From the IMG/VR virus record IMGVR_UViG_3300029548_000183: a DNA stretch of 64,000 nt. One strand, 5' to 3'. How positions within the stretch are numbered: the stretch's first letter is position 1; every line of letters begins with the position of its first letter. A program made the translations under genes and the position numbers. Below the pieces are notes generated by a model. It worked only from the letters and a program-made list of their open reading frames with translations. It had not been told where the DNA came from and searched no databases. Shown in pieces: positions 22,870 to 58,328 of the stretch. Source of the stretch: a virus (lineage: Duplodnaviria; Heunggongvirae; Uroviricota; Caudoviricetes).

Positions 22870-23637
22870 CTATTTTTCATTTATAAATTCATCAACTAAT
22901 TTGACATAGTCTTTTGCACTTGTACAATTAGGCATGTAATTTAATAACAGTTCTCTTTTGGTTTGCGCTTCCTTGACACTAATGCATCTTCTAATTGTTG
23001 TTTTAAAAAGTTTTGTTCCTATTTGTCCAGCTATTTCTTCCAAAGTTTTTTTAACTTCTCTGGAAAGAATAGTTCGTTTATCATCCATGACAAGAAGTAA
23101 TCCTGCTATATTTAAATTTGGATTAAATCTTTTTTGTGTCTTCTTTATTGAGTCATATAATTGAGCTAATCCCTGTACTCCATATTGATCTGCTGTTATT
23201 GGGATGATAATATCATCAACTGCAACAAGGCAATTAATCAATAATGTATTTAAACTTGGACCAGTATCAATAACTAAATAATCATATCCATTTAAATTGG
23301 AAATGGAATCTCTCAATTTAAAGAAACCATCAACATCTCCATTTAATATTTTGTCAGCATTTGAAAGAAGACTATCAGATGCAATAATATCTCCTGCTTC
23401 TGTATGCTGAATTGCTTCATTAATGTCAACCGGATTTTCTTCTTCAAGAATTACATCATATAAGGTAGTTATACCATCTCCTGTATTAGCTCTGTATGTA
23501 TTAGTGCTGTTGCACTGTGGATCTGCATCTATAAATAAAACCTTATATCCTTTTGTTTGCAATACATTTGCTATTGCTGTGGCTGTGGATGTTTTTCCAA
23601 CTCCACCTTTTTGATTTGCTATAAGTATAGTTCTCAT
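22870..23637 (-). CDS. parA: ParA-family partition ATPase
   Basis: Deviant Walker A motif KGGVGKT in ..IANQKGGVGKTSTATAIA..; typical ParA length. Confidence 0.9.
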   Translation of the reverse strand: MRTILIANQKGGVGKTSTATAIANVLQTKGYKVLFIDADPQCNSTNTYRANTGDGITTLYDVILEEENPVDINEAIQHTEAGDIIASDSLLSNADKILNGDVDGFFKLRDSISNLNGYDYLVIDTGPSLNTLLINCLVAVDDIIIPITADQYGVQGLAQLYDSIKKTQKRFNPNLNIAGLLLVMDDKRTILSREVKKTLEEIAGQIGTKLFKTTIRRCISVKEAQTKRELLLNYMPNCTSAKDYVKLVDEFINEK

Positions 23638-31249: not shown

Positions 31250-32776
31250 ATGAAAGGTATAAAATATTTTATGATAAAAGCAATTATTATTGGTGTTGCA
31301 GTAGTATTATTTTTAATTCTTATTTTAACTAGTTATGTTAAGGCTCCACCAAATATGGCATATGTAATTTCCGGATTAAAGAAACATCCAAAAGTATTAA
31401 TTGGAAGAGCAGGAATTAAGTGGCCAATACTTGAAAGACTTGATAAATTATTATTAGGTCAGATTACAATTGACATTAAGACTGAAGGATACATTCCAAC
31501 AAGAGATTTCATTAACATTCAGGTTGATGCTGTTGCAAAAGTTAAGGTTGGAAATACAGAGGAAATGATGGCTCTTGCAATGAAAAACTTTTTAAATAAG
31601 AATTCTGATGCAATCATTGAAGATTTACAGGATTCACTTCAGGGCAATATGCGTGAGATCATAGGTACTCTTGATCTTAGAAGCATCTGTAATGACAGAA
31701 ATGAATTTGGTAACATGGTGCAGGAATCTGCAACTAAAGACATGGCAAAATTAGGAATTGAAATCATATCATGTAACATTCAGAATGTAAATGATGAAAC
31801 AGACTTGATTGTAAACATGGGTGCTGACAATACTGCTAAAATCAGAAAAGATGCAAGCATTGCAAAAGCAGAAGCAGAGAGAGATGTGGCAATTAAACAG
31901 GCAGAGGCAGATAAGGCTGCCAATGATGCAAAAGTAGCATCAGAACTCGAAATTGCTCAGAAGCAGAATGAATTGGAAATCAAGAAAGCAGAGTTAAAGA
32001 AAGTTGCTGATGCAAAGAAAGCAGAAGCTGATGCGGCATATGAAATTCAGCAGCAGGAACAGAGAAAATCAATTGAAATTGCTTCATCAAATGCAGACAT
32101 TGCAAAACAGGAAAGAGAAGCAGAAAAGAAAAAACAGGAAGTATTGGTTAAGGAACAGGCTCTTGCAGCTGAAGTCAAGAAGACAGCAGAGGCAGAAAAA
32201 TTCAGAAGACAGCAGGAAGCAGAAGCTGAATTATTTGAAAGACAAAAAAATGCTGATGCACAGAAAGCAGAAGCAGAAGCTAAAAAATATGCTTTGGAAC
32301 AGGAAGCTGAAGGTATTAAGGCAAAAGGACAGGCAGAAGCTGAGGCAATCAAGGCAAAGGCTCTTGCAGAAGCAGAAGGTCTTCAGAAGAAAGCAGAAGC
32401 AATGCAGAAGTATGGTGAAGCAGCAATACTTGAAATGTACTTTAAATCATTGCCTGAAGCTATTAAAAATGCAGCTGAACCACTTGGAAATGTTGAATCA
32501 ATTACAATGTATGGTAATGGCAACAATGAACAGATGGTAAGTTCAATTATGAACACAGTAACGCAGGTTAATGATGGTATTAAGGGTTCAACAGGACTTG
32601 ACATGAAATCTGTACTTGCAGGTGTTCTTGGAACTAAGGCTCTTTCATCAGTTGCATCTGATAATAATGAAGATGTTGATGCTGATGATCAGAAGAAAGA
32701 AGAAAAAACATCAAAAGAAAATGCTAAATATACAGAAGTTGTAGAAACTGTTAAAAAAGAAAAAACAGAAGAATAA
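31250..32776 (+). CDS. flotillin-like SPFH protein (FloT/YqiK-like)
   Basis: N-terminal TM, SPFH core, then a long Ala/Glu/Lys/Gln coiled coil with EA repeats. The ORF-track entries embedded at 32004-32604 are frame artefacts. Confidence 0.8.
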   Translation: MKGIKYFMIKAIIIGVAVVLFLILILTSYVKAPPNMAYVISGLKKHPKVLIGRAGIKWPILERLDKLLLGQITIDIKTEGYIPTRDFINIQVDAVAKVKVGNTEEMMALAMKNFLNKNSDAIIEDLQDSLQGNMREIIGTLDLRSICNDRNEFGNMVQESATKDMAKLGIEIISCNIQNVNDETDLIVNMGADNTAKIRKDASIAKAEAERDVAIKQAEADKAANDAKVASELEIAQKQNELEIKKAELKKVADAKKAEADAAYEIQQQEQRKSIEIASSNADIAKQEREAEKKKQEVLVKEQALAAEVKKTAEAEKFRRQQEAEAELFERQKNADAQKAEAEAKKYALEQEAEGIKAKGQAEAEAIKAKALAEAEGLQKKAEAMQKYGEAAILEMYFKSLPEAIKNAAEPLGNVESITMYGNGNNEQMVSSIMNTVTQVNDGIKGSTGLDMKSVLAGVLGTKALSSVASDNNEDVDADDQKKEEKTSKENAKYTEVVETVKKEKTEE

Positions 32777-33575: not shown

Positions 33576-34070
33576 ATGAAGAAAATTTTTTCAAATTATG
33601 AAATCAGAGAAAAAGAAGTTTATGTGGTTAAGGACAAAATGGAAGGTCCTGTACTAAAAAAAGAAGCAATGAAAGAGGCTCAGGAGCAGGAACTTGATCT
33701 TGTTCAGATTGCAGTCAAGGATGGAGTTCCAATCTGCAAATATCTTGACTATAACAAGTATGTGTATGATTTAAAGAAAAAAGAAAAGGGAAACAAGCAT
33801 AAAAAACAGGAAGTAAAGGAAATAAAGATTACTGCAAACACAGAAGAACATGACATAAAAATTAAGGAAAACAAAATAAGAAAAATGCTTGAAAAAGGCT
33901 GTGAAATTAAAATAACAATGATGTTTCGTGGCAGGGAAAAGGCTAACAAGAAATTTTATGTTCCTAAACTTGAATCAATGGTTGAAGACTTAATGGATGT
34001 TGCAGTTGTGTCAAAAAAAATAAAAATTACTGATTACAATGCATTTGTGATTCTTAAATCAAACAGGTAA
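33576..34070 (+). CDS. infC: translation initiation factor IF-3 homolog
   Basis: By-eye alignment to bacterial IF3 over its full length: ..IREKEVYVV..ELDLVQIAVKDGVPICKYLDYNKYVY..QEVKEIKITANTEEHDIKIKENKIRKMLEKGCEIKITMMFRGRE.. Confidence 0.8.
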   Translation: MKKIFSNYEIREKEVYVVKDKMEGPVLKKEAMKEAQEQELDLVQIAVKDGVPICKYLDYNKYVYDLKKKEKGNKHKKQEVKEIKITANTEEHDIKIKENKIRKMLEKGCEIKITMMFRGREKANKKFYVPKLESMVEDLMDVAVVSKKIKITDYNAFVILKSNR

Positions 34071-34083: not shown

Positions 34084-34866
34084 ATGAAAAAAAGAAAAAT
34101 AATATTTTTAACAATTGCATACACAATGCTAACATCTTTTGTTGGTTGTCAAAAAATAAACATAAGGTCTCCAGAAAAAACTGAACAGACAACAGAATTT
34201 TTTTCTGCAAGAGAGACTGAATTAATTACACAACCAATAATAAACATAAGTAGCAAGGATAAATCAAAACCAAAGAAATTTAAATACTTAAATATAGAAG
34301 AAACTCCAAAAGAATTAACGGTTGAATCGTATGATGGTTCATGCAAGTTTCTGATAATTCCTGATGAATCCAATGAATTGCCAGTAACAGGAATTACAGG
34401 TTCAGCATTTTTTGGAAGTAAAGCAGGATTTAAGTATGTGATTTTTGGAAAGAACATAAAAGAAATAGGTAAAAATGCTTTTTGCCAACAGAAAAATTTA
34501 AAATACATTAATTTTAATGATTGCTTGGAAAATATTGATGATGCTGTTTTTTTATCAACAGGTCTAAAAGGAACAATAGTAATTCCTAACAGTGTTAAAT
34601 ACATAGGTAATGGTGCATTTGCTGACACAAAAATAGAAAACATAATTGTAGGAAGTGGTGTGAAAAAAATATCAGCAGTTGCATTCAGTGTTGGTCCAAC
34701 ATTAAAAACAGTTACATTTACGAGCATGAACATTGAGTTTGATGATGACAATAAGAAAGATGGAAACATATTCTATGGTTGTCCAAACTTAACAATTATT
34801 GCACCAATAGGTTCAACAGCAGAAAAATATGCCAAAAAGCACAACATTAGCTTTAAGGAATTATAA
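34084..34866 (+). CDS. lipoprotein with BspA-type leucine-rich repeats
   Basis: Signal peptide with lipobox FVGC. Repeats ..IGKNAFCQQKNLKYINF.., ..IGNGAFADTKIENIIV.. and ..ISAVAFSVGPTLKTVTF. Confidence 0.6.
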   Translation: MKKRKIIFLTIAYTMLTSFVGCQKINIRSPEKTEQTTEFFSARETELITQPIINISSKDKSKPKKFKYLNIEETPKELTVESYDGSCKFLIIPDESNELPVTGITGSAFFGSKAGFKYVIFGKNIKEIGKNAFCQQKNLKYINFNDCLENIDDAVFLSTGLKGTIVIPNSVKYIGNGAFADTKIENIIVGSGVKKISAVAFSVGPTLKTVTFTSMNIEFDDDNKKDGNIFYGCPNLTIIAPIGSTAEKYAKKHNISFKEL

Positions 34867-34951
34867 AAATATTTGGAAAATAAGAGTGTACTTTTGTGTA
34901 TACTCTTATTTTTTTGTCATTAACACCCATTTTATAAATGGAGGTGATTTT

Positions 34952-35560
34952 ATGGGATACATGATATTCAATGTGTATGCTAAACACCATCAAAAATGGA
35001 TGGATAATTTTACATATACGCTTAAGTACACAAAAAAAGGGTTCTACTTCGTTTTCAAGGTAAAAAAAGAAGACATAAAAAAGATTAAAAGAGAGATAAG
35101 AAAACATCATTTGAGATATGCAATGTATGAGGAAAAATGGGAAAGATCAAGTTCCTACAGAAAGAAGTTTTTTAAGGCAAATAAAGGTCCATACAGATGC
35201 CGTTATTGTAACCAAATTCTAAAGAAGGAATACCTTGTGGTTGACCATATTTATCCAATTGCAAAAGGAAAGTATAACAAAGAAAGCAGAAAATTACTAA
35301 ATCTAAGAGGAATTGAAAATGTTAATGATACAAGAAATCTGGCAGCAAGTTGTTTTAAATGTAATGAAAAAAAGGGAGACAAACTTGGGCTATGGTACAT
35401 AAGGGGACTACTTGGACAATATGACTGGTATTGGAAAACATTAAAAATTTTAAAAATTTTGATTATTATTGTAATTATTTTAAGCCTGATTTTCATTTTT
35501 CTGCATTTTTCCAACCTTAATTTCCACTTGCAAAAAATTATAAAAAATCCATTACGCTAA
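34952..35560 (+). CDS. HNH endonuclease with C-terminal transmembrane anchor
   Basis: RBS GGAGGTGA 7 nt before ATG 34952. HNH core CRYCNQ..VVDHIYPIAKGG-like..N..NL..SCFKCNEKKGDK. C-terminus ILKILIIIVIILSLIFIFL is hydrophobic. Confidence 0.7.
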   Translation: MGYMIFNVYAKHHQKWMDNFTYTLKYTKKGFYFVFKVKKEDIKKIKREIRKHHLRYAMYEEKWERSSSYRKKFFKANKGPYRCRYCNQILKKEYLVVDHIYPIAKGKYNKESRKLLNLRGIENVNDTRNLAASCFKCNEKKGDKLGLWYIRGLLGQYDWYWKTLKILKILIIIVIILSLIFIFLHFSNLNFHLQKIIKNPLR

Positions 35561-35596
35561 TATCTTTTTATGATTTTTTAATTTTCATAAAAAAAC

Positions 35597-35612
35597 AACC
35601 ATATTAGATATG
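35597..35612 (+). promoter_or_regulatory. conserved promoter-proximal motif (AACCATATTAGATATG variant) upstream of the cas12a-like gene
   Basis: Same cassette motif as elsewhere. Confidence 0.45.
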
Positions 35613-35641: not shown

Positions 35642-38600
35642 ATGGATAATTTTAAAAATTTTACGGATTTAAAACAGAAACAGATTACAATCTGTCAGAA
35701 ACTCATTCCTGTTGGAATGACAAGAAAAAACATTGACATTTTTAATGCAATGGAAAGTGATGAATATGTCTCTGAAAATAAGGGTGAAATCAGAAAGTTA
35801 ATTAAGCTATTGGCCAGAGAAAAAATGGAAGAAGGAATAAGCAAGGCAAAATCAAATTTAAGTTTTACAAAACTTCTTGGCTTGATGAATGAGTACAATG
35901 AAACTGATTCTGAATATAAGATGGAAGTCCTTGAAAGACTCTTTGATGAAAGAGTAAGACTTGCCAACATTATTGCATCAGAATTTAAGACAAAATTTTC
36001 CTGTGCTGACACAATAACTACTCTTCTTCCTGAATATGTTAATGAACATTTCAATGGAAGTGAAAAGGAAGAATACCTAAACCTTCTTGAAGAGGTTAAG
36101 AAACATCAGGCAATGTTTAACAGGTTTGAGTCAAACATTGACAACATGTTTTCACCAATGCTAAAAAAAGGCTCTGTTGTATACAGAATGTTGGTTGAAA
36201 ATACTCAGATATTTCTTAATAACAAATCAAAAACTGATAAGGAAGATTTTAAGAAAATCATTGATTTGTCAGAACTTGATGATGAAACAAAAAGCATCAT
36301 CATCAAAAGATGCATTGACATTGATGAAGAGTCATATGCAGAAGTCCTAATTCAGGAAGACATTGACGGATACAACTATTGCATTGGAATGCTTAATAGT
36401 GAAAGCAAGATGTTTTGTGATAAAAACAAATTAAACTACAAGGACTTTGAACTTAAAAACTTATATAAGGCAATGCTCTGTGAAAAGACTGCATTCTTTG
36501 AAAAAATTGATTCATTTAAAAATGATGAGCAGATTGTGGATTCCTACAATTCATTAATGTCAAACATTAATGCAAAAAACATTGCAAAAACATATGAAAA
36601 GTGCATGGGACACATGGATGGAATGCACATAAAACCATCAGTTCTTTCATTTTATTCTAATGTTGTGTATGGCAAATGGAATGTTGTAAGAAACTGCATA
36701 AGAGCCTACTGTCAGGATGAAATGAATTCAATAAAAAAGAATAAAAAGAGTCTTGATGATTATTATGAAGCTTTCATTAAGAAAGGCATAACAATTAACC
36801 AGATAAGTAACATTGTATCATCATATGCTGAAGAACTTGAGCTAAAGGTCTTTGAGAAAGATTTATCAGATACAATATACAGTTATCTTTTACATAAATA
36901 TGCATGTGTGGAAGAGGAAAAAACTCCATTGAAGTCTGATGAAAGCAAAAATGCAGAAACAATCAGGGTTGAACTTGAACATTGCATTCAGGCATTAAGG
37001 TTACTAAAAATTTATGACACTGAAAATGACAATCTCAATGAAGAAATGAAAACATTGATTGATGAAATCATTGATGAATTGTCACCTGCCATATTATTGT
37101 TCAACATGACAAGAAACTACATAACTGCAAAACCTACTCCAAAGAAAAAACTTGCATTGACATTCAATACTGCAAGCTTTGGAGGAGGGTGGAGTGAAAG
37201 TGTTGAAAGTTCAAAGAGAGTGAGTTTACTAAAGGATGATGAAGGAAACAAGTACCTGATGATATACAACATAACAGGATGTAAGGCTAACAATGTTTCC
37301 ATGGTATCAGTTACGGAAAAAGTAAAGGCGAATTTACTTAATGACAAGAAGAACATTGACTGTTACAGAAAACTTGTATACAGTGCGGTTCCTGATGCAT
37401 TAAAGGACATATCAAGACTTTTCATTAACAAACTTGAAGATGAAGAAATGATTAAACGCTACAAGAATAAGGAACACAAGGAAAACAGGGAATTTCTTAA
37501 TGAACTGATAAGTGTCTTAAAGAAAAAGATTAATGAGCATCCTACATGGTCAAGATATGGCTTTAAGTTTAGGGATGAATACGATTCCTTTGATGATTTT
37601 TGCGATGACATTAATAATCAGGGCTACTATGCAAAATGGAAATACATTCCAAAGACAGTAATTGATGAGTATGTCGAAAATGGATGCATTTATCTGTTTA
37701 AGATTTACAACAATGATTATAGTGCATACAAAAAGGCAGGTTCAAAGGTTAAAACCCATACAAGATACCTTGATTACTTATTTAGTGATGAAAATGAAAA
37801 AACAGATCTCATCAAATTACTTGGAGGTCTTGAAGTATTCTATAGAGAGCCTCAGATTAAGAATCCTTATGTACATAAAAAAGGTAGCATTCTTGTAAAC
37901 AAGAAATACAAGGATGGAACAATCATTGGTAATGAATATAAGGAGTTATTTAAAAAGGCACAGACAACAAAACTTGACAATGTGTATACAAGAGCGTGTC
38001 CATATGACATCATAAAGGACAAGAGATATACAATGGAACAGTTTGAAGTTCATTTTCCAATATTGATTGGTAATGACAATAATCCTGAAAATTTCATTGA
38101 AATGAGTAAACACTTTGTTGAAAATGCAAAGCACACGGTTGTTGTTGGTAGAAACAGGGACAATCTTTTATATGTGTCTGTTTATGAGGAAAATGCCTTA
38201 ATTCATTCAAAATCACTTAATAAAGTAAATGGAACTAATTACAAGGATAAGTTATTCATAATTGAAGATGCAAAGAAAAACAATGCAAGAAACTGGAAAA
38301 CAATAGGCTCAAATGATGCATTGCTGACAGGATACATTTCAGCAGTAATAAAAGATATCACAGACCTTGTTCTTAAATACAATGCAGCTCTCGTCATTGA
38401 AATGGGAAGTAACTTGGCAAAAGACAGAAATCTCTTGCCAAACAGAGTATATACAAAGTTTAAGGAAGCACTACTTCACAAATTGGAATTTCTAATTGAT
38501 TCAGAAAAGGCTGATGATGAACCGGGTGGATTATTACATCCTTATCATTTGACTGAAATTAATAAGAAAAATCCAAAGAGAAGTATTGATACTCCACACA

Positions 38601-39181
38601 ATGGAATAGTGTTACTGGTACCTTCATTTTATTGTGGTTTAACTGATCCGGAATCAAATCTTTGTAATCTTACTTATGCAAGAACAAAAAAGGAAAAGGA
38701 AGAGGTTCTTAAAAAAATTAAGGGATTTAAGTACAATAAGGAAGAAAGTATTTTTGAATTTGTTTATGACATGTCATTATTCAATCCTAACATGAAAGGA
38801 AAGTTTACTTGTACAAGCAATGGAGACAGACTGGTTGATACAGAAAATGATAAGGTGGTAATGGACTTAACACATTATATTGAAGATAAGTTAAAATCAC
38901 TTGGAATCGAGTATAAGTCAGGAAATGAAATTAATCTCATTTCTGATGATGGGTTAACAAATGAAACTTTATTTAACTGTATTAGATACACATTACAGAT
39001 GAACAATGGTAATTTCTTCATTTCTCCTGTTACGGGATTTTGCTATACTTGTGATGGTTGTTCAAACATTTCTTATAATAGAAATTTGTACAACAGATCA
39101 AAACTGGTTAAGGAAAACATAAAGAGTGGAAAGAAACTTAAGTTCATGACAATCAAGGACATTTACAAACCTCAGTCTTAA
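35642..39181 (+). CDS. cas12a: Cas12a (Cpf1)-family protein; RuvC and Nuc catalytic residues appear substituted (predicted nuclease-deficient)
   Basis: Cas12a hallmark blocks found by eye: QKLIPVGMTRKNI (WED-I), RNYITAKPTPKKKLALTFNTASFGGGW, GCIYLFKIYNNDYSAYKK..THTRYLDYLFSDENEKTDLI..LEVFYREPQ, YDIIKDKRYTMEQFEVHFPI, and the RuvC-II block YNAALVIEMG with Glu retained. The RuvC-I position reads TVVVGRNRDNLLYV where IGIDRGERNL is expected. The Nuc block reads TLQMNNGN (Arg replaced by Asn). No DADANGAY-like RuvC-III motif is present. Confidence 0.85.
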   Translation: MDNFKNFTDLKQKQITICQKLIPVGMTRKNIDIFNAMESDEYVSENKGEIRKLIKLLAREKMEEGISKAKSNLSFTKLLGLMNEYNETDSEYKMEVLERLFDERVRLANIIASEFKTKFSCADTITTLLPEYVNEHFNGSEKEEYLNLLEEVKKHQAMFNRFESNIDNMFSPMLKKGSVVYRMLVENTQIFLNNKSKTDKEDFKKIIDLSELDDETKSIIIKRCIDIDEESYAEVLIQEDIDGYNYCIGMLNSESKMFCDKNKLNYKDFELKNLYKAMLCEKTAFFEKIDSFKNDEQIVDSYNSLMSNINAKNIAKTYEKCMGHMDGMHIKPSVLSFYSNVVYGKWNVVRNCIRAYCQDEMNSIKKNKKSLDDYYEAFIKKGITINQISNIVSSYAEELELKVFEKDLSDTIYSYLLHKYACVEEEKTPLKSDESKNAETIRVELEHCIQALRLLKIYDTENDNLNEEMKTLIDEIIDELSPAILLFNMTRNYITAKPTPKKKLALTFNTASFGGGWSESVESSKRVSLLKDDEGNKYLMIYNITGCKANNVSMVSVTEKVKANLLNDKKNIDCYRKLVYSAVPDALKDISRLFINKLEDEEMIKRYKNKEHKENREFLNELISVLKKKINEHPTWSRYGFKFRDEYDSFDDFCDDINNQGYYAKWKYIPKTVIDEYVENGCIYLFKIYNNDYSAYKKAGSKVKTHTRYLDYLFSDENEKTDLIKLLGGLEVFYREPQIKNPYVHKKGSILVNKKYKDGTIIGNEYKELFKKAQTTKLDNVYTRACPYDIIKDKRYTMEQFEVHFPILIGNDNNPENFIEMSKHFVENAKHTVVVGRNRDNLLYVSVYEENALIHSKSLNKVNGTNYKDKLFIIEDAKKNNARNWKTIGSNDALLTGYISAVIKDITDLVLKYNAALVIEMGSNLAKDRNLLPNRVYTKFKEALLHKLEFLIDSEKADDEPGGLLHPYHLTEINKKNPKRSIDTPHNGIVLLVPSFYCGLTDPESNLCNLTYARTKKEKEEVLKKIKGFKYNKEESIFEFVYDMSLFNPNMKGKFTCTSNGDRLVDTENDKVVMDLTHYIEDKLKSLGIEYKSGNEINLISDDGLTNETLFNCIRYTLQMNNGNFFISPVTGFCYTCDGCSNISYNRNLYNRSKLVKENIKSGKKLKFMTIKDIYKPQS

Positions 39182-39287
39182 TTTTAACAAAGTCAAAATT
39201 ATAAAAGAAAAATGAGTGAATATACCCAAAATCATTGTGATTATGTACTTTTTTCATAAAGAAAATTGTGCATAATCACAAGATAAG

Positions 39288-39502
39288 AGTTAAAGAAAAG
39301 CAAATGTCTGCTGATATGCAGATTAGATTGTGCCACTCATTCCATCAGAAGTTAAAAGAAGACGAAATGTCTACCATCATGTAGATCATAACAAGTAGCA
39401 TATCCCAATATACAGTAAAAGGAAGTAAAATGTCTGCCATTATGTAGATATGGTGTGATTACTCTGGATTTCAATGAGAAAAAATTCTGCTGTTGATGAA
39501 AT
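39288..39502 (+). CRISPR. mini CRISPR array: 3 Cas12a-type repeats plus a degenerate terminal repeat, 3 spacers of 26-27 nt
   Basis: Period of 63 nt. Repeats of ~36 nt end in AATGTCTGCTGATATGCAGAT, AATGTCTACCATCATGTAGAT and AATGTCTGCCATTATGTAGAT (Cas12a-like UCUAC-loop-GUAGAU hairpin). A 4th copy at 39470-39502 is degenerate. Confidence 0.75.
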
Positions 39503-39628
39503 ATATTCCGTAAGCTTGTAAAATCATGAAAAGAAAAAATTATTCAAAAACTAAATAGAGTCAGTTAATCTGGCTCTTTTCTTTTTGTAGAATGCAAAAA
39601 TTGAGATAACAAACAAAATGGTATAATA

Positions 39629-39726
39629 AAAAATAAAAAAAGTAATGTCTGCTGTTATGCAGATTCAGTGTGTGTAATAGGACAAACTATATTAAAAGAA
39701 AACAAAATGTCTGCTATTGCGTAGAT
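39629..39726 (+). CRISPR. second mini-array: 2 repeats, 1 spacer (26 nt), with its own promoter-like and terminator sequences
   Basis: Repeats end GTAATGTCTGCTGTTATGCAGAT and AAAATGTCTGCTATTGCGTAGAT. TTGAGA-N15-TATAAT lies upstream (39601-39627). A hairpin plus T-run lies downstream (39740-39766). A separate terminator at 39558-39596 divides it from array 1. Confidence 0.65.
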
Positions 39727-39833
39727 ATAATAAGTAAAAATTGGAGTCAAAAGTAGACTCCTTTTTTTGTACAAAAATAAACAAGGAAACAACCATATTA
39801 AGTATAAGAAAACAATGAAAGAAGGAAGAAAAG

Positions 39834-40691
39834 ATGCTTAACTTAAATTCTTTATACAATGGGGATTGCCTTGAAGTAATGAATCAGATTGATGACAAAT
39901 CAATTGACTTAATATGTACTGACCTGCCTTATGGACAAACAGCAAGAAATAAATGGGATACTGTCATTCCCTTTTGTGATTATGTGAAAATAAAAGGAAA
40001 TACATACTATGAAAATGATGTATTTAAAATTAGTGGTGTGCTTAATAAGAATATGGAATACACAAAAAAATGGTTTGATGAAAACAAAAAGACAGGACTA
40101 TGGACTCATTATAAACGTATCATTAAGGACAATGGAGCAATTGTTTTGTTTGCAAATGGTATGTTTACGGCTGACTTAATGAAAAGCAATGAGAAAATGT
40201 GGAGGTATAATCTTGTATGGCAAAAAACGCAGCCAACAGGTCATTTAAATGCAAAAAGAATGCCATTACGTTCACATGAAGACATATGTGTTTTCTACAA
40301 AAAACTTCCAACATATAATCCACAAAAAACAACAGGACATAAAAGAAAAGTATCAACAGCAAAAAACAAAATGAACTGTAAGAAAACATTAAATTATGGT
40401 GAATATAATCTGACATCATATGATAGCACGGAAAGATACCCAACCTCAGTATGGACTTTTTCAAAGGACATACAAAAATCAGCAATACATCCGACACAAA
40501 AACCAGTTGCCTTAATTGAGAAAATAATAAAAACATATTCAAATGAAAATGAAATTGTTCTTGATTCCTGTGCCGGAAGCATGACAACTACGATTGCCAG
40601 CATTAACACACACAGGCAGTACATATGCATTGAAAAAGACAAGGATATTTTTGAATCTGGAAAGGAAAGAGTACAAAAAGCAAAAAAATAA
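39834..40691 (+). CDS. DNA methyltransferase (N6-adenine/N4-cytosine, beta class), orphan
   Basis: Motif IV DLICTDLPYG precedes motif I DSCAGSMTT; no adjacent restriction endonuclease. Confidence 0.8.
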   Translation: MLNLNSLYNGDCLEVMNQIDDKSIDLICTDLPYGQTARNKWDTVIPFCDYVKIKGNTYYENDVFKISGVLNKNMEYTKKWFDENKKTGLWTHYKRIIKDNGAIVLFANGMFTADLMKSNEKMWRYNLVWQKTQPTGHLNAKRMPLRSHEDICVFYKKLPTYNPQKTTGHKRKVSTAKNKMNCKKTLNYGEYNLTSYDSTERYPTSVWTFSKDIQKSAIHPTQKPVALIEKIIKTYSNENEIVLDSCAGSMTTTIASINTHRQYICIEKDKDIFESGKERVQKAKK

Positions 40692-42215: not shown

Positions 42216-42221
42216 GGGCTT

Positions 42222-42295
42222 GGATCATTAGCTCAGCAGGTTGGAGCGGTTGTCTCATAAGCAACAGGTGGTAGGTTCGACTCCTACATGATCCA
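42222..42295 (+). tRNA. tRNA with anticodon CAU (elongator Met or lysidine-dependent Ile2 type)
   Basis: Cloverleaf folded by hand. Acceptor GGATCAT/ATGATCC with 7 Watson-Crick pairs; D-arm GCTC-AGCAGGTTG-GAGC; anticodon arm GTTGT-CTCATAA-GCAAC; T-arm GTAGG-TTCGACT-CCTAC; discriminator A; no encoded CCA. The paired 1-72 position argues against an initiator. Confidence 0.85.
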
Positions 42296-42504
42296 TTAAA
42301 AAAGGAATATTATTCCTTTTTTTTTGCTCTTTTTCTCTGATTAAACAAAAAAGAGTATACAGCCATATTATAAGTGAAGGGCAAAAAGTCCTTCTTCTAA
42401 GTATTACAAATTTTAAATTCAAAAGAAAGGAGGATCAGGGATTAAACTGAATATCAATATTCTACCCATCTGTTATTCTCACAGATGGGTCCCTGTTTTT
42501 ACGA

Positions 42505-43419
42505 ATGTTTTTATTTTTCATTGTGATTGCATTGGGAATTGCAGTTGTTTCAACATGTGTAAAGATTGTGCCACAGGCTCATTCTTACATAATTGAAAGA
42601 TTGGGAGTGTATCAACAGACATGGCCAGTTGGCATACATTTCAAAATTCCATTTTTGGACAGAGTGGCAAGAAAGGTTAATTTAAAGGAGCAGGTTGCAG
42701 ATTTTGACCCACAGCCTGTTATTACAAGAGATAATGTAACAATGCAAATTGATACAATTATTTTTTATCAGATTACGGATCCAAAACTTTATGCTTATGG
42801 CGTTGAAAATCCAATTTTGGCAATTAAGTCATTGACTGCAACAACACTCAGAAACATAGTAGGCGACTTGGAACTTGATGAAACTCTTACTTCAAGAGAA
42901 ACAATCAATGCCAAGATGCGCACAGAACTTGACGTAGCGACTGATCCTTGGGGAATAAAGGTCAACAGGGTAGAACTTAAAAACATCATTCCACCAAGAG
43001 ACATTCAGGAAGCAATGGAAAAGCAGATGAGAGCTGAACGAGAAAAACGTGAACAAATTCTTAGAGCAGAAGGTGAAAAGAAATCCGCAGTTCTCATTGC
43101 AGAAGGAAAGAAGGAAGCTGCAATTCTTAATGCAGAAGCAGATAATAAGGCTGCTGTTCTTAAAGCTGATGCTGAAAAGAAAAAACGAATTCTTGAAGCT
43201 GAAGGTGAGGCACAGGCCATTCTTAGTGTTCAGAAGGCAACGGCAGATGGAATTAAGGTGATTAAGGAAGCAGGAGCAGATGATGCAGTTCTTACACTTA
43301 AGAGTTTAGAAGCTTTTGTGGCTGCAGCTGATGGTCAGGCTACAAAGATTATCATTCCATCAGAAATCCAGGGAATTGCCGGTTCAGTAAAGGCTTTGGC
43401 AGAAACAATCAAGGATTAA
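42505..43419 (+). CDS. SPFH-domain protein (stomatin/QmcA-like)
   Basis: N-terminal TM. IVPQAHSYIIERLGVYQQTWPVGIHFKIPFLDRV matches the stomatin-type SPFH core. No clear RBS before ATG 42505, so the start is uncertain. Confidence 0.8.
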   Translation: MFLFFIVIALGIAVVSTCVKIVPQAHSYIIERLGVYQQTWPVGIHFKIPFLDRVARKVNLKEQVADFDPQPVITRDNVTMQIDTIIFYQITDPKLYAYGVENPILAIKSLTATTLRNIVGDLELDETLTSRETINAKMRTELDVATDPWGIKVNRVELKNIIPPRDIQEAMEKQMRAEREKREQILRAEGEKKSAVLIAEGKKEAAILNAEADNKAAVLKADAEKKKRILEAEGEAQAILSVQKATADGIKVIKEAGADDAVLTLKSLEAFVAAADGQATKIIIPSEIQGIAGSVKALAETIKD

Positions 43420-43585: not shown

Positions 43586-44002
43586 ATGAAATTAGATAAT
43601 AATAATCATTCGGTATTCATGCTCCATTATCACCTTATTATGTGCATTAAATATCGTAATAAAGTTATAGATGATAAAATCTCAAACCGTCTCAAAGAAA
43701 TATTTGAGAAGATAGCTCCTTCCTATAACATCACGTTAGAGGAATGGAATCACGACATAGACCATGTACATATACTATTTCGAGGACAGCCCAATACGGA
43801 AATAAGTAAATTTATCAATGCTTATAAATCTGCAAGCAGTAGACTTATCAAAAAAGAATATCCTCAGATACGTAAATATCTCTGGAAAGAGATGTTCTGG
43901 TCACAGAGCTTTTGTCTGTTAACCACGGGCGGTACTACGGTAGATATTATTAAGCAATATATCCAATCTCAAGGTAAGAAAGATGGCAAACAGAGCAATT
44001 AA
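43586..44002 (+). CDS. tnpA: IS200/IS605 family transposase TnpA (HUH Y1)
   Basis: HYHLIMC..YRNKV.. and ..HDIDHVHILFRGQP.. (HuH motif), ..ASSRLIKKEYP..LWKEMFWSQSFCLLTTGG.. over 138 aa. Confidence 0.85.
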   Translation: MKLDNNNHSVFMLHYHLIMCIKYRNKVIDDKISNRLKEIFEKIAPSYNITLEEWNHDIDHVHILFRGQPNTEISKFINAYKSASSRLIKKEYPQIRKYLWKEMFWSQSFCLLTTGGTTVDIIKQYIQSQGKKDGKQSN

Positions 44003-45128
44003 GTACAGAGCATATCCTACAACTAAACAATCTGTCATGTTTGCTAAGACCTTTGGCTGTTGTCGTAAGGTCTATAATCTCATGCTTTCAGATAAGATTG
44101 AAGGCTACAAGGCTACTGGTGAGTTTCCTACTGTTACACCTGCTAAGTATAAGAACGATTATCCTTATCTTAGAGAAGTAGACAGCCTTGCTCTTGCCAA
44201 TAAGCAGATGGACTTACAGGAGGCTTTTCGTAATACATTTAGTAAATCTCGTAAGAAGAAAAACGGTTTTCCTAAATTCAAGTCTGCCAAACATAGTCGT
44301 AAGTCCTATACTACAAACAATCAAAAAGGCACAGTTGCTATCATAGATAACAAATGTATTAAGCTCCCTAAGATTGGAAAGGTAAAAGCTGTTATCCATC
44401 GTGTGCCTGACGATAGTTGGACAATTAAATCGGCTACCGTATCACAGGAATCTGACGGCAAATATTATATCTCCGTACTCTTTGAGTTTGAGAATACCGT
44501 AAATCCTTATGTAGCCGATAAAACTAATGCCATCGGGTTAGATTATGCTTCCGACGGCTTATACGTAGATAGTAATGGCAATACAGGTACTAATCATAAG
44601 TATTATCGTGAGAGCCACAACAAGCTTGCTAAGGCTCAGCGTAAGCTATCACGTATGCAAGGCTCTAAGAAACACGAGGTTAAGTCCAATAATTATATAA
44701 AGCAACTCCGTAAAGTGAATAAGATACATAGGCATATCGCTAATCAGCGTTTGGATAACCTGCATAAGATATCTACTGAGATAGCCAATCAGTATGATGT
44801 TGTTTGTGTAGAATCCCTAAATATGAAAGTTATGTCAAATAAAGGTTTTGGTAATGGCAAAGCTACTCTTGATAACGGATATGGCATGCTCCTGTCTATG
44901 CTTGAATACAAGTTATCTGACAGGAATAAGTATCTCATCAAGGTAGACAAGTGGTTCCCGTCATCACAGATATGTCATTGTTGTGGTATGCTACATCCTG
45001 AAATGAAGAATTTAGCCATCCGTAAAATGACATGTAATTGTGGTCTTACAATAAGCCGTGACCAGAACGCTGCTATCAATATCCTAAAGGAAGGATTACG
45101 ACTACTGACTGAAGTAGCCCGAAACTAA
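43983..45128 (+). CDS. tnpB: TnpB (IS605 OrfB) RuvC-like RNA-guided nuclease family protein
   Basis: C-terminal zinc finger ICHCCGM..CNCG, followed by ISRDQNAAINILKEG (RuvC-III). Start overlaps the end of tnpA. Confidence 0.85.
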   Translation: MANRAIKYRAYPTTKQSVMFAKTFGCCRKVYNLMLSDKIEGYKATGEFPTVTPAKYKNDYPYLREVDSLALANKQMDLQEAFRNTFSKSRKKKNGFPKFKSAKHSRKSYTTNNQKGTVAIIDNKCIKLPKIGKVKAVIHRVPDDSWTIKSATVSQESDGKYYISVLFEFENTVNPYVADKTNAIGLDYASDGLYVDSNGNTGTNHKYYRESHNKLAKAQRKLSRMQGSKKHEVKSNNYIKQLRKVNKIHRHIANQRLDNLHKISTEIANQYDVVCVESLNMKVMSNKGFGNGKATLDNGYGMLLSMLEYKLSDRNKYLIKVDKWFPSSQICHCCGMLHPEMKNLAIRKMTCNCGLTISRDQNAAINILKEGLRLLTEVARN

Positions 45129-49448: not shown

Positions 49449-49570
49449 CATGCAAAAAACATAAAAAGTCAAATAAAATACGTCAAAATTTAGAATAAAT
49501 AGTTAAAAATTTCAGGTATATCCGGCACCCATTTTGTTTTTAGACAAACAAAATGAAAGGTGGAAACGAT

Positions 49571-51895
49571 ATGCAGACAAGTATATTTGATTTTATGATG
49601 CCGGAAATCTCAATAGACAAGCCAATAAGACTTATTGAACTGTTTGGTGGATATGGCTCACAAGCTATGGCACTAAAAAGAATAGGAGCAAATGTTGAAC
49701 ATTGGAAAATGTCTGAATGGGAAATAGATGCAGACAAGTCATACAACAGTGTTCATAATAACAAGGATTTTAAAAATTATGCAAGGGGAAAGAGCAGAGA
49801 ACAACTTGCAAGAAAATTATATAAAAGGGGCATATCAAATGATGGCAGCACTCCAATGCCTTATTCAAAAATAAGAAAAATGAGTTTGGAACAGTTACAG
49901 AAAACATATAATTCATTCTGCCAGAATCAGAATTTGGGAAGCATAACAAACATAAAAGGAAAACAACTAAACATAGTGAATACCAATAAGTATGAATACA
50001 TAATGACATATTCCTTTCCCTGCACTGATTTATCATTGTCAGGAAAGCAAAAAGGAATGAAAAAGGGAAGTGGAACAAGAAGCGGACTGCTATGGGAAGT
50101 TGAAAGAATTCTCACTGAATTAAGAGACGAGGGAAGGGAACTTCCTCAAATATTATTCATGGAAAATGTACCGCAAGTCATTGGAGCAAAGAACATTGAA
50201 GATTTCAGGGATTGGGAAGATTTCTTAAAAAGTCTTGGATACTCAAATCATCTGCAAATATTAAATGCAAAAAATTATGGAGTTGCTCAAAATAGAGAAA
50301 GATGTTTCATGCTTAGTTTTTTAGGGGAATATAACTATCATTTTCCGGAACCGATAAAATTGGACAAGAGATTAAAGGACTATCTTGAAAAAGATGTTGA
50401 TGAAAAATATTACATAAAAAATGAAAAAGCAAAAAGGTTAATAGATGAATTAATAAAAAGTAGAACATTTAAACCTGATTCCATAATGACATATGACATT
50501 CCTCAAACTGTTCTTGTAAGAAAACATGAAATAGATAATAAAAAATTATGTGAATTTTTAAGAAAACATAAGGCAAATTCAAATAAAACAAATGTTGAAA
50601 TTGCAGAAAATTTAAATCTGCCTGTAACACAGGTTGAGCACTGGTTTAGAATGGATAACAGCTTTGCAGTTCCTGATGCAAACGTATGGATTAATCTAAA
50701 AAAATGTCTAAATATACAGTCTGATGAATGGGATGAAAAAATCATGACATTTGAGGAGAAATTATCAGTTTTTGAAAAAGGAAACAGATGTTATGGTGCC
50801 AATGGAATAGCACCTACAATTACAAGTTCAAGTGCTGATGAAAAAATCATAGAACCTAAGTGTCTGAATAGTAAAGGTGGCAGAAATGGAGTAGAAGGAC
50901 TTCAACCAAAAGTTATAGGCTCAATTTATACTGAAAATTCAGAAATGTTTGGCACAAAATTAATGCCAATAGCACATACATTAAAGGCATCAAAAAATGA
51001 TGTGGCAATTGTTGAAAAAATTAAGGAATCTGAACCACAAATTGAAGTTCTTGGTAATTACATGAAGAGTAACCATGATGCAACAAGAGTGGTATCACCT
51101 GAAGGCATTGCACCAACGGTAAGAGAATGCCATGGTTCAGTTACAGCCGTTGCACTTGAGGATGAGAGTAATGATGCACAGATTAACATACTTGGACTTC
51201 TGGACATAAAAGGAAAAGATCAGGTTAGACGTGTATATGGTGTTGATGGAATTTCACCTACACTTAACACAATGCAAGGAGGAAACAAACAACCAAAAAT
51301 AGTTGAAAGTGAAGTGGTATCAGCAGCAATAAGAGGAAGATATGATGAGAATGGTAAGGTGGAACAGCATTTGGAACAGGGAAGCAGGGAGTACTCAAAC
51401 ACAATAACAACTGTAACAAAGGATAATATGGTAATAGAAAAGAATAACAAGCCTGAAAGGGTCGGTCAAATTTCAAGTGATGGAAGTCAATGTGGAATGG
51501 TGTATTCTGATGATGGACTCTTCCCTACACTTAGTGCGGGATGTCATGGATATGCAAATCCACATGTATATACACAATATAGAATAAGAAAACTGACACC
51601 TGTTGAATGTGGAAGACTAATGGGTGTCAATATGGATGACATCATAAGAATGATAATTGCAGACCACAGGAAAGCTGATGAATATTTACAATACATGAAA
51701 GACAATGGCATTGAATATGAAGGAAAAAAACAAATGGATGAACTTTCAAAAATACAGGGAATGTCAAATTCCAAATTATACAAGCAGTATGGAAATTCAA
51801 TTGTGGTTGATGTGATGTGTGCAATGTTTAGAAACTTAAACATCAAGGGTATTAAAAATTGGAATAATTATTGTAAAAATCAGGCAAAAAAATAA
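49571..51895 (+). CDS. DNA (cytosine-5) methyltransferase with long C-terminal extension, orphan
   Basis: Motif I ELFGGYGS, IV FPCTDLS, VI FMENVPQV, VIII AQNRERCF. About 500 aa follow motif VIII. RBS AAAGGTGGAAA before ATG 49571. Confidence 0.85.
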   Translation: MQTSIFDFMMPEISIDKPIRLIELFGGYGSQAMALKRIGANVEHWKMSEWEIDADKSYNSVHNNKDFKNYARGKSREQLARKLYKRGISNDGSTPMPYSKIRKMSLEQLQKTYNSFCQNQNLGSITNIKGKQLNIVNTNKYEYIMTYSFPCTDLSLSGKQKGMKKGSGTRSGLLWEVERILTELRDEGRELPQILFMENVPQVIGAKNIEDFRDWEDFLKSLGYSNHLQILNAKNYGVAQNRERCFMLSFLGEYNYHFPEPIKLDKRLKDYLEKDVDEKYYIKNEKAKRLIDELIKSRTFKPDSIMTYDIPQTVLVRKHEIDNKKLCEFLRKHKANSNKTNVEIAENLNLPVTQVEHWFRMDNSFAVPDANVWINLKKCLNIQSDEWDEKIMTFEEKLSVFEKGNRCYGANGIAPTITSSSADEKIIEPKCLNSKGGRNGVEGLQPKVIGSIYTENSEMFGTKLMPIAHTLKASKNDVAIVEKIKESEPQIEVLGNYMKSNHDATRVVSPEGIAPTVRECHGSVTAVALEDESNDAQINILGLLDIKGKDQVRRVYGVDGISPTLNTMQGGNKQPKIVESEVVSAAIRGRYDENGKVEQHLEQGSREYSNTITTVTKDNMVIEKNNKPERVGQISSDGSQCGMVYSDDGLFPTLSAGCHGYANPHVYTQYRIRKLTPVECGRLMGVNMDDIIRMIIADHRKADEYLQYMKDNGIEYEGKKQMDELSKIQGMSNSKLYKQYGNSIVVDVMCAMFRNLNIKGIKNWNNYCKNQAKK

Positions 51896-52016: not shown

Positions 52017-53054
52017 ATGGAGAGAAATTTAATAATAAGTCAGTTGCAAAAACAGGACCAGTCAGTTATATCATTTCCTGACAGAAACAGTGAGTGGGGT
52101 GATTCCAAGTATCGTGGAAACTGTTCAGGTTGGATACAGGCTTTTCTCATATGGAAGTATCAGGTAGAAAAATTTGCTGAATTGTTTAGTGGCTCAGGTA
52201 CGGGATATGATGTGGCAAAGGACATGGGTATTAAATATGTTGGAGCTGACCTTAATCCTGTTCCTGTAAGACCGGGCATACTTCAGGTAAATGCAGTTAC
52301 TGATGAAGTACCCGAAGCATTTGTTCAGAGTGACTTTATTTTCATGCATCCACCCTATGGTGCTGAAATTGGCATACCATATGCCGGAGCAGAATGGGGG
52401 GCAGAAAAGAAATGGACAAAGGTTAATGGCAGAAACAAATGTATCATCACTGATCATACCAATGAATTAATACCAAAAATGGGATATGATCCCAAGGATT
52501 ATGATTTGGGACGAATGGAATGGAATAAATTCATCAAGACATTAAACACAATAATAATGAAATATTATTCAGCAATGCAGAATGGTGCAAAAATGGGAAT
52601 CCTCATGGGTGATGTGAGAAGAGCAGGAAAGTTTCATTCTATGCTTACGGACATTGTTAAACCCGGAAGCCTAGAGCAGGTAATCATTAAGATGCAACAT
52701 AATACTGTGTCTGAAAGACAAAACATACAGTATGCTCACAAAAATTTTGTTCCCTTGGTACATGAATACATAATGGTTCTAAAGAAAATTACGCCATACA
52801 TAATTGATTTTTCGTTACCAACAAAATATGAAGGGGACATAAGGGATTCTTCATCAGCCACATGGAGAGATGTTGTTGTTGCTGCAATGAACAATCTTGG
52901 AGGAACAGCAGATCTTAACTCAATTTACAATGAAATTGATGGACATAAGAAATGTAAAAATAATGAACTTCATTGGAAAGAAAAAATCAGACAGACATTA
53001 CAGCATTACAATGTATTCATAAATATTGAACGTGGAGTTTGGTCCTTGGCTTAA
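52017..53054 (+). CDS. putative N6-adenine DNA methyltransferase (gamma-like motif order)
   Basis: Motif I-like FSGSGTG, then motif IV-like MHPPYG. Confidence 0.6.
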   Translation: MERNLIISQLQKQDQSVISFPDRNSEWGDSKYRGNCSGWIQAFLIWKYQVEKFAELFSGSGTGYDVAKDMGIKYVGADLNPVPVRPGILQVNAVTDEVPEAFVQSDFIFMHPPYGAEIGIPYAGAEWGAEKKWTKVNGRNKCIITDHTNELIPKMGYDPKDYDLGRMEWNKFIKTLNTIIMKYYSAMQNGAKMGILMGDVRRAGKFHSMLTDIVKPGSLEQVIIKMQHNTVSERQNIQYAHKNFVPLVHEYIMVLKKITPYIIDFSLPTKYEGDIRDSSSATWRDVVVAAMNNLGGTADLNSIYNEIDGHKKCKNNELHWKEKIRQTLQHYNVFINIERGVWSLA

Positions 53055-57311: not shown

Positions 57312-58328
57312 TTATGTATTATTTAAGTTTTTTTGCTTTTTTTCAAGTTCTTTTATAGTGTATTCCAATTCTCTTTTTTCTTTTATTAAGACATCAACCT
57401 TTTTTATTAATTTATTCTTTTCTCTTTTTGTGTTTCTAAGTCTATTTTTAAGAGTATGAATTTCTGCATTTTTTCTTTTTAACTCTTCATAATCAAAGGG
57501 AATTTGTCTGAGTCCAAAATAATTTCGCACATCCTTTTCTATTACTTTAAAACCACCATTGTATAATTTCTTTTCCATTGTTTTTATAATGTCTGACTTT
57601 TGATCAGTGTCGATAAAGAGAGACTTTATTAAATAAAAAGCAATGTAATCAGCAAGTTCAATACCTGCATTCTCTGTATGCTTTGAAATGGTTACAAAAC
57701 TTCGAATTCTTTTTCTAATTTCTAAATTATTTATGTTTAAAATTCCTTTGTTGTTAATTAAAGTTTTACAGTAATTGTGATACATCTTTATGTCAGCAGA
57801 ATTAATTGTTCTATGTTCATCTCGTGATTCATATACAATATCTCCAATTGCATTTTGATTTTTTAAAAAATGTGCATAATTCTCAATGATGTTTTGTATT
57901 GCAATATTATATATATCATCTTTTTGTTCTTTTGAATAATACTCTTTATATTTATTTATGTCTATGATACATCCCAAAATAGTAATATCAAGAGTACTAA
58001 TGGTTTTTCTTATTTGCTCTGTAACACCATCAATTTTATCTTTTATTAAATTTGGTTCAATTGATTGAAAAAATTTATATTCATTTCTTTTTATGTAACT
58101 ATAAAGTAACTTATTTTTTCTATTATTTTTAATTGTTGCTAATTCAGTACAATGCAATATGGTGTCATGAGAATTAATGTAATTTTCAGTCCATAATATA
58201 GTTTTGGCTTTATGTATTTGCTCTTTTAAAAAGTCAATGTCCTTTTCTCTTATTGCAAAACCAGCAACAAGAATTATTTGTTTTTCAGTGTTTATGCTTT
58301 CATCAAGATAAAGTTTGTATTCTTTCAA
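57312..58328 (-). CDS. DUF3800-like protein with C-terminal coiled coil (TTG start)
   Basis: RBS AAAGGAGG 6 nt before TTG. N-terminus KEYKLYLDESINTEKQIILVAGFAI matches the DUF3800 start. Confidence 0.45.
   Translation of the reverse strand: MKEYKLYLDESINTEKQIILVAGFAIREKDIDFLKEQIHKAKTILWTENYINSHDTILHCTELATIKNNRKNKLLYSYIKRNEYKFFQSIEPNLIKDKIDGVTEQIRKTISTLDITILGCIIDINKYKEYYSKEQKDDIYNIAIQNIIENYAHFLKNQNAIGDIVYESRDEHRTINSADIKMYHNYCKTLINNKGILNINNLEIRKRIRSFVTISKHTENAGIELADYIAFYLIKSLFIDTDQKSDIIKTMEKKLYNGGFKVIEKDVRNYFGLRQIPFDYEELKRKNAEIHTLKNRLRNTKREKNKLIKKVDVLIKEKRELEYTIKELEKKQKNLNNT

Follow-up and report, generated by a model that had tools for sequence, protein, structure and literature searches.

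We analysed a 64,000-nucleotide stretch of DNA filed as an IMG/VR virus record (IMGVR_UViG_3300029548_000183), referred to below as the window and numbered from its first letter, in which a Cas12a-like effector gene is followed by a CRISPR array, array 1, and then by a short second unit, unit 2. The window is a plasmid, as it encodes a Rep3 initiator and ParA. We rate it as somewhat better than an even chance (a probability of about 0.55) that unit 2, at 39601-39768, is a second, independently transcribed mini-CRISPR array of a plasmid-borne, Cas12a-derived system with a mutated RuvC site, whose guide would bind its target and thereby block it. The original prediction for this DNA had described a stand-alone single-spacer CRISPR RNA (crRNA) unit with its own promoter and terminator, and had taken it for a dedicated regulatory guide rather than an immune memory.

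Anatomy of the second guide unit

The elements of unit 2, and the terminator that precedes it, are as follows.

39557-39586, + strand: terminator 1, a stem-loop AGAGTCAGTTAATCTGGCTCT at 39557-39577 (8-bp stem, 5-nt loop) followed by TTTCTTTTT
39601-39627, + strand: sigma-70-type promoter of unit 2 (TTGAGA at 39601-39606, 15 nt, TATAAT at 39622-39627)
39629-39664, + strand: first repeat of unit 2, in which only the 3' handle AATGTCTGCTGTTATGCAGAT (39644-39664, 21 nt) is conserved
39665-39690, + strand: spacer S4, 26 nt, TCAGTGTGTGTAATAGGACAAACTAT
39691-39726, + strand: second repeat of unit 2, a hybrid repeat
39727-39768, + strand: trailer, which can be read as guide-like (ATAATAAGTAAAAATTGGAGTC...) and runs into terminator 2
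39743-39768, + strand: terminator 2, a stem-loop GGAGTCAAAAGTAGACTCC at 39743-39761 (6-bp stem) followed by a T7 run at 39762-39768

The hairpin plus T-run closing array 1, the TTGAGA-N15-TATAAT promoter and the second hairpin terminator with its T7 run, all claimed in the original prediction, were recovered, and separate transcription of the unit is accordingly predicted from the two bracketing intrinsic terminators and the unit's own promoter. A TG at 39619-39620, overlooked before, additionally gives this promoter a perfect extended -10 element (TGgTATAAT). Our promoter scan was limited to spacings of 16-18 nucleotides (nt) and missed the promoter because its 15-nt spacing lies outside that limit. 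The description of two Cas12a-type repeats around a 26-nt spacer was right for the spacer and the handles and wrong for the 5' half of the first repeat, an A-rich part (39629-39643) that is barely repeat-like and overlaps the predicted transcription start. Because only the 3' 21 nt of this repeat are repeat-like, the unit consists essentially of promoter, handle, spacer, handle and terminator.

The repeats are not a fortuitous likeness, an outcome that had been allowed for when the unit was first described. The handle pattern ATGTCTRC-N6-GYAGAT was present in five exact copies, all on the + strand and all within 39304-39726, and when up to two mismatches were allowed there were 8 matches against 0.84 expected in shuffles. 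Terminator-like sites numbered 6 in the interval 38800-40200 compared with 0.3 expected, and TGNTATAAT was found only 6 times on both strands of the window (128 kb), with one copy sitting 16 nt before the first handle of unit 2. All handles fold alike, into a 6-bp hairpin (z = -2.9 to -4.4), unit 2 as a whole folds with z = -4.8 relative to shuffles, and both terminators fold as predicted. In a direct stem tally covering 19 handles from four lineages, all 19 retained the 5-bp core of the stem. Both sides of the stem change in a compensatory way at two positions, one going from U-A to C-G and the other from A-U to G-C; the latter change is visible among the five handles of the window itself, where the pair is G-C in R1 and R5, A-U in R2 and G-U in R3 and R6. 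The handle loop measures 6 nt here and 6-12 nt across the window lineage and the orthologue locus L003. A short peptide starting at the ATG within each handle was considered and rejected, as there is no ribosome-binding site and the supposed reading frame is merely repeat sequence.

A Cas12a-like effector lacking RuvC catalytic residues

The effector is encoded directly upstream of array 1.

35642-39181, + strand: Cas12a-like effector gene, 1179 amino acids (aa), assigned from Pfam domains and from PDB and clade alignments

Its product carries the Pfam domains REC1, REC2, PI, RuvC_1 and NUC, all above cut-off except REC1, which is near it, and Cas12a proteins are its top matches in the PDB (E = 1e-82 to 1e-52). 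The RuvC-I Asp has been lost: in a HMMER alignment, in which HILSIDRGERHLAY aligns with HTVVVGRNRDNLLY, D917 of FnCas12a stands opposite Gly836. The RuvC-II Glu is kept (Glu920, equivalent to FnCas12a E1006), and the RuvC-III D-x-N-G motif is absent, as the alignment ends before the DADANGAY region and the segment is deleted or replaced in the multiple alignment. The same double loss was seen in the relatives P0002-P0005 (43-56% identity), P0008, P0011 and P0012, and across the clade the RuvC-I Asp is replaced by Gly, Thr or Ile. Among the 154 nearest full-length family proteins, a set that includes the protein of the window, the Asp is missing in 29, and the D-x-N-G motif was found in none of these 29 as against 119 of the 125 Asp-bearing proteins.

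The crRNA-processing triad His745/Lys754/Lys792, in contrast to these RuvC residues, is kept (in PYVH745KKGSILVNK754 and IIK792DKRY) and is invariant in the clade; its members are exact counterparts of H843, K852 and K869, which we take to be the pre-crRNA-processing residues of FnCas12a. From these RNase residues and the hairpin handles, the effector is predicted to be able to process its own pre-crRNA. Its DNase activity, on the other hand, has most likely been lost with the RuvC catalytic residues, so that guides here would most likely act by binding and not by cutting. The 29 proteins with the double loss appear to form a natural group of nuclease-dead Cas12a (dCas12a) proteins that has yet to be characterised. 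Inactivated type V effectors named in recent classification and review papers are V-C, V-K, V-M, V-O, V-P and Cas12b3, with no Cas12a variant among them; published surveys mention only in passing "altered catalytic sites ... in Cas12a" (PMC10691335), and our literature search found no paper characterising such a RuvC-deficient Cas12a protein.

Array 1 turns over while unit 2 gains no spacers

Array 1 lies between the effector gene and terminator 1 and comprises the following elements.

39182-39287, + strand: leader, assigned from sequence
39288-39323, 39351-39386 and 39414-39449, + strand: repeats
39324-39350 (S1), 39387-39413 (S2) and 39450-39476 (S3), + strand: spacers
39477-39502, + strand: degenerate fourth repeat, whose hairpin no longer folds

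Sixteen related contigs from different samples were gathered by scanning JGI metagenomes with 20 nt of S4 and by look-ups of near-identical effectors. Their flanking genes are 97.5-99% identical to those of the window, and they fall into five array haplotypes.

Haplotype a: array 1 S1 S2 S3; unit 2 S4 (window, L023)
Haplotype b: array 1 v01 v02 v03 S1 S2 S3; unit 2 S4 (L015, L033, L034)
Haplotype c: array 1 v04 v05 S1 S3; unit 2 S4 S6 (L016)
Haplotype d: array 1 v06 v07 S1 S2 S3; unit 2 S4 S6' (L025, L026; partial L027, L018)
Haplotype e: array 1 v08 v05 S1 S2 S3; unit 2 absent (L030, L031, L035-L037)

Array 1 turns over at its leader end, where eight variable spacers lie next to repeats without differences, and what the haplotypes share, old spacers and decaying repeats, is on the trailer side; this is the classical signature of polarised acquisition. 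Unit 2 gained no spacer in any haplotype, and S4 is present, and identical, in every copy that bears the unit. The earlier view that unit 2 is not an adaptive memory agrees with this difference between a constant S4 and a changing array 1. The single spacer, however, is not a designed property as had been supposed, as two haplotypes carry a second one: in haplotypes c and d unit 2 reads R-S4-R'-S6-R'', and the second repeat of unit 2 in the window joins the 5' half of R' to the 3' half of R''. The single-spacer state of the window is therefore the product of a repeat-repeat deletion. In haplotype e (five contigs) a deletion of ~960 nt extends from the fourth, decayed repeat as far as the interior of the methylase gene that follows unit 2; the unit is lost along with its promoter and terminators 1 and 2, and is therefore dispensable for the plasmid. 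The identity of unit 2 in haplotypes a-d is no sign of selection, because divergence is only 1-2.5%.

The leader of array 1 contains a 14-bp inverted repeat (TTGTGATTATGTAC at 39235-39248 and GTGCATAATCACAA at 39268-39281), which is kept, with both arms changed, in the 54-55%-identical orthologue loci L002 (~10283-10340) and L003 (13553-13600 and 13963-14005). This inverted repeat may serve as an operator or fold as a hairpin in the leader RNA; the promoter of unit 2 is without it. In L025 the fourth repeat of array 1 is less decayed and ends in GTAGAT.

Other observations were made on these haplotypes. In the two-spacer variants the second spacer, ACTAATATTTTTTTGYATTTTTTATTTTAT (30 nt; L016 1836-1865, L018 148-177 and L025 7217-7246), is extremely AT-rich, with T runs right after the handle hairpin, and may be a weak terminator instead of a guide. 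The leader-proximal spacers v01 (TGGACAAGCTCGGCTGTAAAGCAATA) and v03/v05 (TGGACAAGAGACTCTATAAAACAAT) of array 1 in L015 (reverse complement) and L016 are identical at 18 of 25 positions and seem to be directed at a single site shared by two diverged forms of one element; a degenerate scan of IMG/VR gave no match. Along with unit 2, the methylase gene behind it (39834-40691) is altered in several haplotypes, where it is truncated, split or deleted.

Small guide units at orthologous loci

Separately promoted small guide units recur at orthologue loci of 43-54% identity, in three lineages and with promoters of unrelated origin. In L011 (43%) a terminator (9605-9633) is followed by a promoter, TTGATT-17-TATACT with a TG (9644-9672), a handle at 9679, a spacer, a second, differing handle and another terminator (9793-9822), all upstream of the effector gene. 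The extended -10 promoter of this stand-alone unit lies 6 nt before its handle, and a separate four-spacer array lies downstream of the gene. When the stand-alone spacer of L011 was compared with the promoter of its own cas12a gene, no match of the CreR kind (see below) rose above AT-rich noise. In L003-L005 (54%) there are two downstream arrays, the second of which stands behind a duplicate of the 3' end of the gene plus leader.

In Eubacterium album LFL-14 (L021, 43%) two arrays lie upstream of the gene; their leader is duplicated, and either array has one copy in front of it. A terminator made up of a hairpin and a T-run was read from the sequence between the two arrays and was not flagged by our scan. 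The second array is small, with heterogeneous handles, and its first spacer matches 27 of 27 nt of MT837915.1, a 5,990-nt "Bacteriophage sp." scaffold from human faeces, with TTTC directly 5' of the protospacer. At least in E. album, the guide of the second array is an ordinary spacer derived from a mobile genetic element, with a canonical Cas12a protospacer adjacent motif (PAM), and by analogy it points to immunity-type guides in preference to gene regulation. The T-rich PAM is documented only here: the sole protospacer found (TTTC) belongs to the E. album orthologue locus and not to the spacers of the window. Array 1 of E. album carries the same spacer, TAATTGAACTTCTCGTATTTTTCATTT, twice (L021 4871-4897 and 5182-5208).

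Search for the target of S4

A spacer search had been proposed along with the original prediction, and it yielded no credible target of S4 in the window, PLSDB, phage records, IMG/VR, GTDB or JGI data. Within the 64-kb window (up to 3 mismatches, and seed scans with and without PAM) the best seed was 7 nt and none was flanked by TTTV; the region upstream of cas12a yielded nothing. Blastn of concatenated spacers against PLSDB and INPHARED gave no credible match for S4, and matches with E ~1 to Aeromonas phages were taken as chance. No exact 26-mer or 18-mer of S4 was found in IMG/VR, and no exact 20-mer in 185,579 GTDB species genomes. In JGI metagenomes an exact 20-mer was found at seven loci, three of which are copies of the array itself; the four others (L014, L017/L020 and L019) were rejected as chance, being free of open reading frames (ORFs), without a T-rich PAM, mutually unrelated and without an Rfam match.

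Twelve more spacers from the window and L003 lineages matched nothing in PLSDB, phage records or IMG/VR; 0 of 30 spacers from four lineages matched PLSDB, the sole match overall being the phage-like scaffold matched by the E. album spacer, and an analysis of cross-targeting between plasmid lineages detected none. The lack of a match for S4 is uninformative because the other spacers of the lineage also match nothing in databases, and S4 most likely targets an unsampled mobile element, as most spacers do. Read as a guide, the trailer matches 9 PAM-proximal nt next to a TTTA at 52028-52040, the 5' end of a methylase-like ORF (52017-53054); with p ~0.08 before correction for five guides, this match is not convincing.

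Proposed mode of action

If unit 2 is a mini-array of this kind, a transcript of ~135 nt (5' end near 39634) would start at its extended -10 promoter, terminator 1 would insulate it from array 1, and terminator 2 would end it. The RNase site of the effector would cut 5' of each handle, giving a mature crRNA that consists of the 21-nt handle and S4 and begins at ~39644 (AAUGUCUGC...). The complex of effector and crRNA would then recognise a TTTV-flanked protospacer and, being unable to cut, would block transcription or replication of the target, as has been shown for Cas12m, Cas12c and type IV systems. Having its own promoter would keep the old S4 guide expressed independently of the leader of array 1, with its possible operator.

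Several points weigh against this account. The protospacer of S4 was absent from all collections searched. One common haplotype (e) is without unit 2, and the conservation of the unit is no more than expected from flanks that are 97.5-99% identical. The 15-nt spacing between the -35 and -10 elements is suboptimal, and both the promoter and the RNA processing are predicted. The loss of DNase activity is likewise read off the sequence, and the active site may have been rearranged, with Glu802, which is specific to this clade, as one candidate for a compensating acidic residue. One orthologue locus, L032 (41%), has a single array only.

Alternative explanations

We regard it as rather unlikely that unit 2 is a decaying relic, the trailer end of a once longer array that was severed by decay or insertion and is functionless, with motifs that are incidental in AT-rich DNA. 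The degenerate fourth repeat of array 1 would fit such a history, as would the shrinkage (loss of S6) or disappearance of unit 2 in some haplotypes, the disruption of the adjacent methylase gene in some variants and a degree of conservation no higher than that of the flanking genes; terminator 2 followed by CAACCATATTA is, moreover, the generic intergenic layout of this plasmid. Both handles of unit 2 nevertheless keep perfect hairpins despite their sequence differences, a perfect TGnTATAAT lies at the right distance although the motif occurs only 6 times in 128 kb (both strands), and separately promoted small units have recurred independently in three lineages (43-54%) with different promoter or leader origins. 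The dedicated regulatory guide of the original prediction, comparable to CreR or crlRNA, is unproven and in our estimate unlikely: S4, or an RNA made of the terminal handle and trailer, would steer the effector to a promoter of the plasmid or host and so tune a gene such as that of the effector, a methylase or a host function. A stand-alone unit with its own promoter and a rho-independent terminator right behind the handle does have the architecture of V-A CreR and Cracr elements; the unit gains no spacers, self-targeting would be tolerable given a dead nuclease, and the 5' end of the methylase-like ORF is matched, beside a TTTA, by 9 PAM-proximal nt of the trailer. That match, however, reaches only p ~0.08 before correction for five guides, and for S4 the seed does not exceed 7 nt in the 64-kb window, with no TTTV PAM, the cas12a upstream region is empty and its exact 20-mer is unmatched in 185,579 species genomes. 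The unit also lies downstream of array 1, away from the effector promoter, is deleted in a five-contig haplotype and so is dispensable, and has in E. album an equivalent small array that bears a phage-derived spacer.

We consider it improbable that unit 2 encodes an anti-defence decoy, a Cracr-like handle RNA that would load a host Cas12a and shield the plasmid by titrating that protein or repressing its promoter. Mobile genetic elements are documented to encode V-A Cracr RNAs, in 16 cases on plasmids, that combine a promoter of their own with one repeat-like handle, a short guide and a terminator, and unit 2 is on a large plasmid beside several orphan DNA methylases, which are typical anti-restriction cargo. 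Here, however, the cognate effector is encoded directly upstream on the same plasmid, and the handles of unit 2, with their 6-nt loop, match those of its own array 1 and not the canonical AAUUUCUAC-N4-GUAGAU.

Comparison with known systems

Known CreR units lie upstream of cas12a, and their spacers partly match the cas12a promoter beside a TTTV PAM (bioRxiv 10.1101/2023.03.10.532045; 10.1101/2023.03.03.530964). CreR tunes cas12a in Moraxella and Ruminococcus. Unit 2 resembles these CreR and crRNA-like V-A mini-arrays in having a stand-alone handle and spacer outside the main array that are separately transcribed and served by the same effector (bioRxiv 10.1101/2023.03.10.532045; 10.1101/2023.03.03.530964). 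It differs from them in lying behind array 1 and in showing no partial promoter match (at least ~9 PAM-proximal nt plus PAM) in the 64-kb window; the effector here, moreover, already appears nuclease-dead, so that partial complementarity would not be needed to avoid cutting. As for conservation of the CreR type, unit 2 with identical S4 was found in 4 of 5 haplotypes and deleted in one, at a divergence of only 1-2.5%. Cracr RNAs, like unit 2, are carried by a mobile element and combine a Cas12a handle and a short guide with a promoter of their own and a rho-independent terminator, and they are stackable (bioRxiv 10.1101/2024.10.29.618823), but they hijack the Cas12a of the host without a cognate effector, whereas here an effector and a normal array lie directly upstream. 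Mini-arrays borne by viruses and used in inter-virus competition are alike in placing a one- or two-spacer array with a fixed guide on a mobile element, and unlike in using host Cas proteins against related viruses where the plasmid has its own effector (PMC11656645).

With Cas12m (V-M), Cas12c (V-C) and type IV the system has in common that it is plasmid-borne, that no adaptation genes lie beside the effector and that the nuclease is inactivated; in both, interference is presumed to proceed through a block of transcription or replication, with spacers probably acquired in trans (PMC11656645, PMC12669027). The effector here is, by contrast, a full-size Cas12a homologue (REC1/REC2/PI/Nuc), and no plasmid protospacers were found. 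Canonical type V-A is matched in domain architecture, in the self-processing RNase residues, in the hairpin handle at the 3' end of the repeat and, in a relative, in the 5' TTTV PAM. It is departed from in the loss of the RuvC-I Asp and RuvC-III motif, in the lack of cas1, cas2 and cas4 in the window, in handle loops of 6-12 nt and in the plasmid location, V-A having been reported almost exclusively from chromosomes (PMC10691335). With an incomplete RuvC triad and no adaptation module found in the window, the system is, as judged from its predicted proteins, not standard type V-A.

Plasmid context

The locus had no near DNA relatives in curated phage and plasmid collections or in IMG/VR. Contigs with the same effector reach 232 kb (examples of 215-232 kb), and the element is thus larger than the window. 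No family match to Cas1, Cas2 or Cas4 was found among window ORFs of at least 120 aa, in an element that extends beyond these 64 kb. Besides the replication and partition genes, the window encodes a tyrosine recombinase, three DNA methylases, a SpaA/thioester surface protein and an IS200/IS605 element.

18985-20241, - strand: Rep3 initiator
22870-23637, - strand: ParA
39834-40691: DNA methylase gene (N6/N4)
49553-51895: DNA methylase gene (C5)
52017-53054: DNA methylase gene (weak N6/N4 match)

No restriction gene was seen adjoining any of the three methylase genes. An HNH endonuclease gene (34829-35560, + strand) lies 81 nt upstream of the effector gene and is conserved in the window lineage only. 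Homing is one possible role of its product; a second and speculative one, that of a nuclease partner, was considered and dropped, as the gene is without a counterpart in the orthologue loci. The motif CAACCATATTA occurs at 23 sites in the window compared with 3 expected, all but one on the + strand (for example 35596-35606 and 39790-39800). Where this was checked, at the cas12a-like and methylase genes, it stands ~35 nt before the start codon. The arrays are not preceded by it, and it is probably a plasmid-specific promoter or 5' untranslated region element.

A HEARO RNA of Rfam (the IscB-associated omega-RNA family) was detected at full length at 12045-12254 (+ strand, 93 bits), with no obvious IscB-sized ORF beside it. 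A full-length homologue of translation initiation factor IF3 (33576-34070) and three SPFH/flotillin-family proteins (7412-8344, 31250-32776 and 42505-43419) are an unusual cargo, atypical of plasmids. A tRNA-Met gene (42221-42296) lies near the IS200/IS605 unit at 43586-45128, which comprises a Y1 TnpA (43586-44002) and TnpB (43983-45128). A weak DUF3800 match (57312-58445, - strand, E = 5e-4) was found 18 kb from the CRISPR locus; DUF3800 proteins have been reported as accessory to some V-A2 and VI-F loci (PMC12669027), and the match here is probably coincidental.

Significance

In a wider proposal, which we put forward tentatively and hold to be doubtful as it stands, large plasmids would carry a so far uncharacterised class of natural dCas12a systems with two tiers of guides, and unit 2 would belong to the hard-wired tier: one or more non-acquiring cassettes of promoter, handle, guide and terminator would program the effector as a constitutive repressor of a specific locus in the host or in a rival element, and the adaptive array would be fed in trans. 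The stand-alone V-A crRNA-like units described so far are, to our knowledge, regulators or anti-defence tools, all of them working with a cutting-competent Cas12a and needing partial complementarity so as not to be cleaved. Here such a cassette occurs within a plasmid-borne Cas12a lineage that is without RuvC catalytic residues and has kept the crRNA-processing residues, a normally evolving array and, in a relative, a TTTV PAM. If confirmed, unit 2 would be a natural minimal expression cassette of promoter, handle, guide and terminator. The cassette by itself is of moderate interest, and the part that specialists may find notable is its apparently natural dCas12a setting: the effector, should this be confirmed, would be a dCas12a of natural origin and a full-size relative of the scaffold most used for CRISPR interference and editing, in which binding-only interference evolved by itself.

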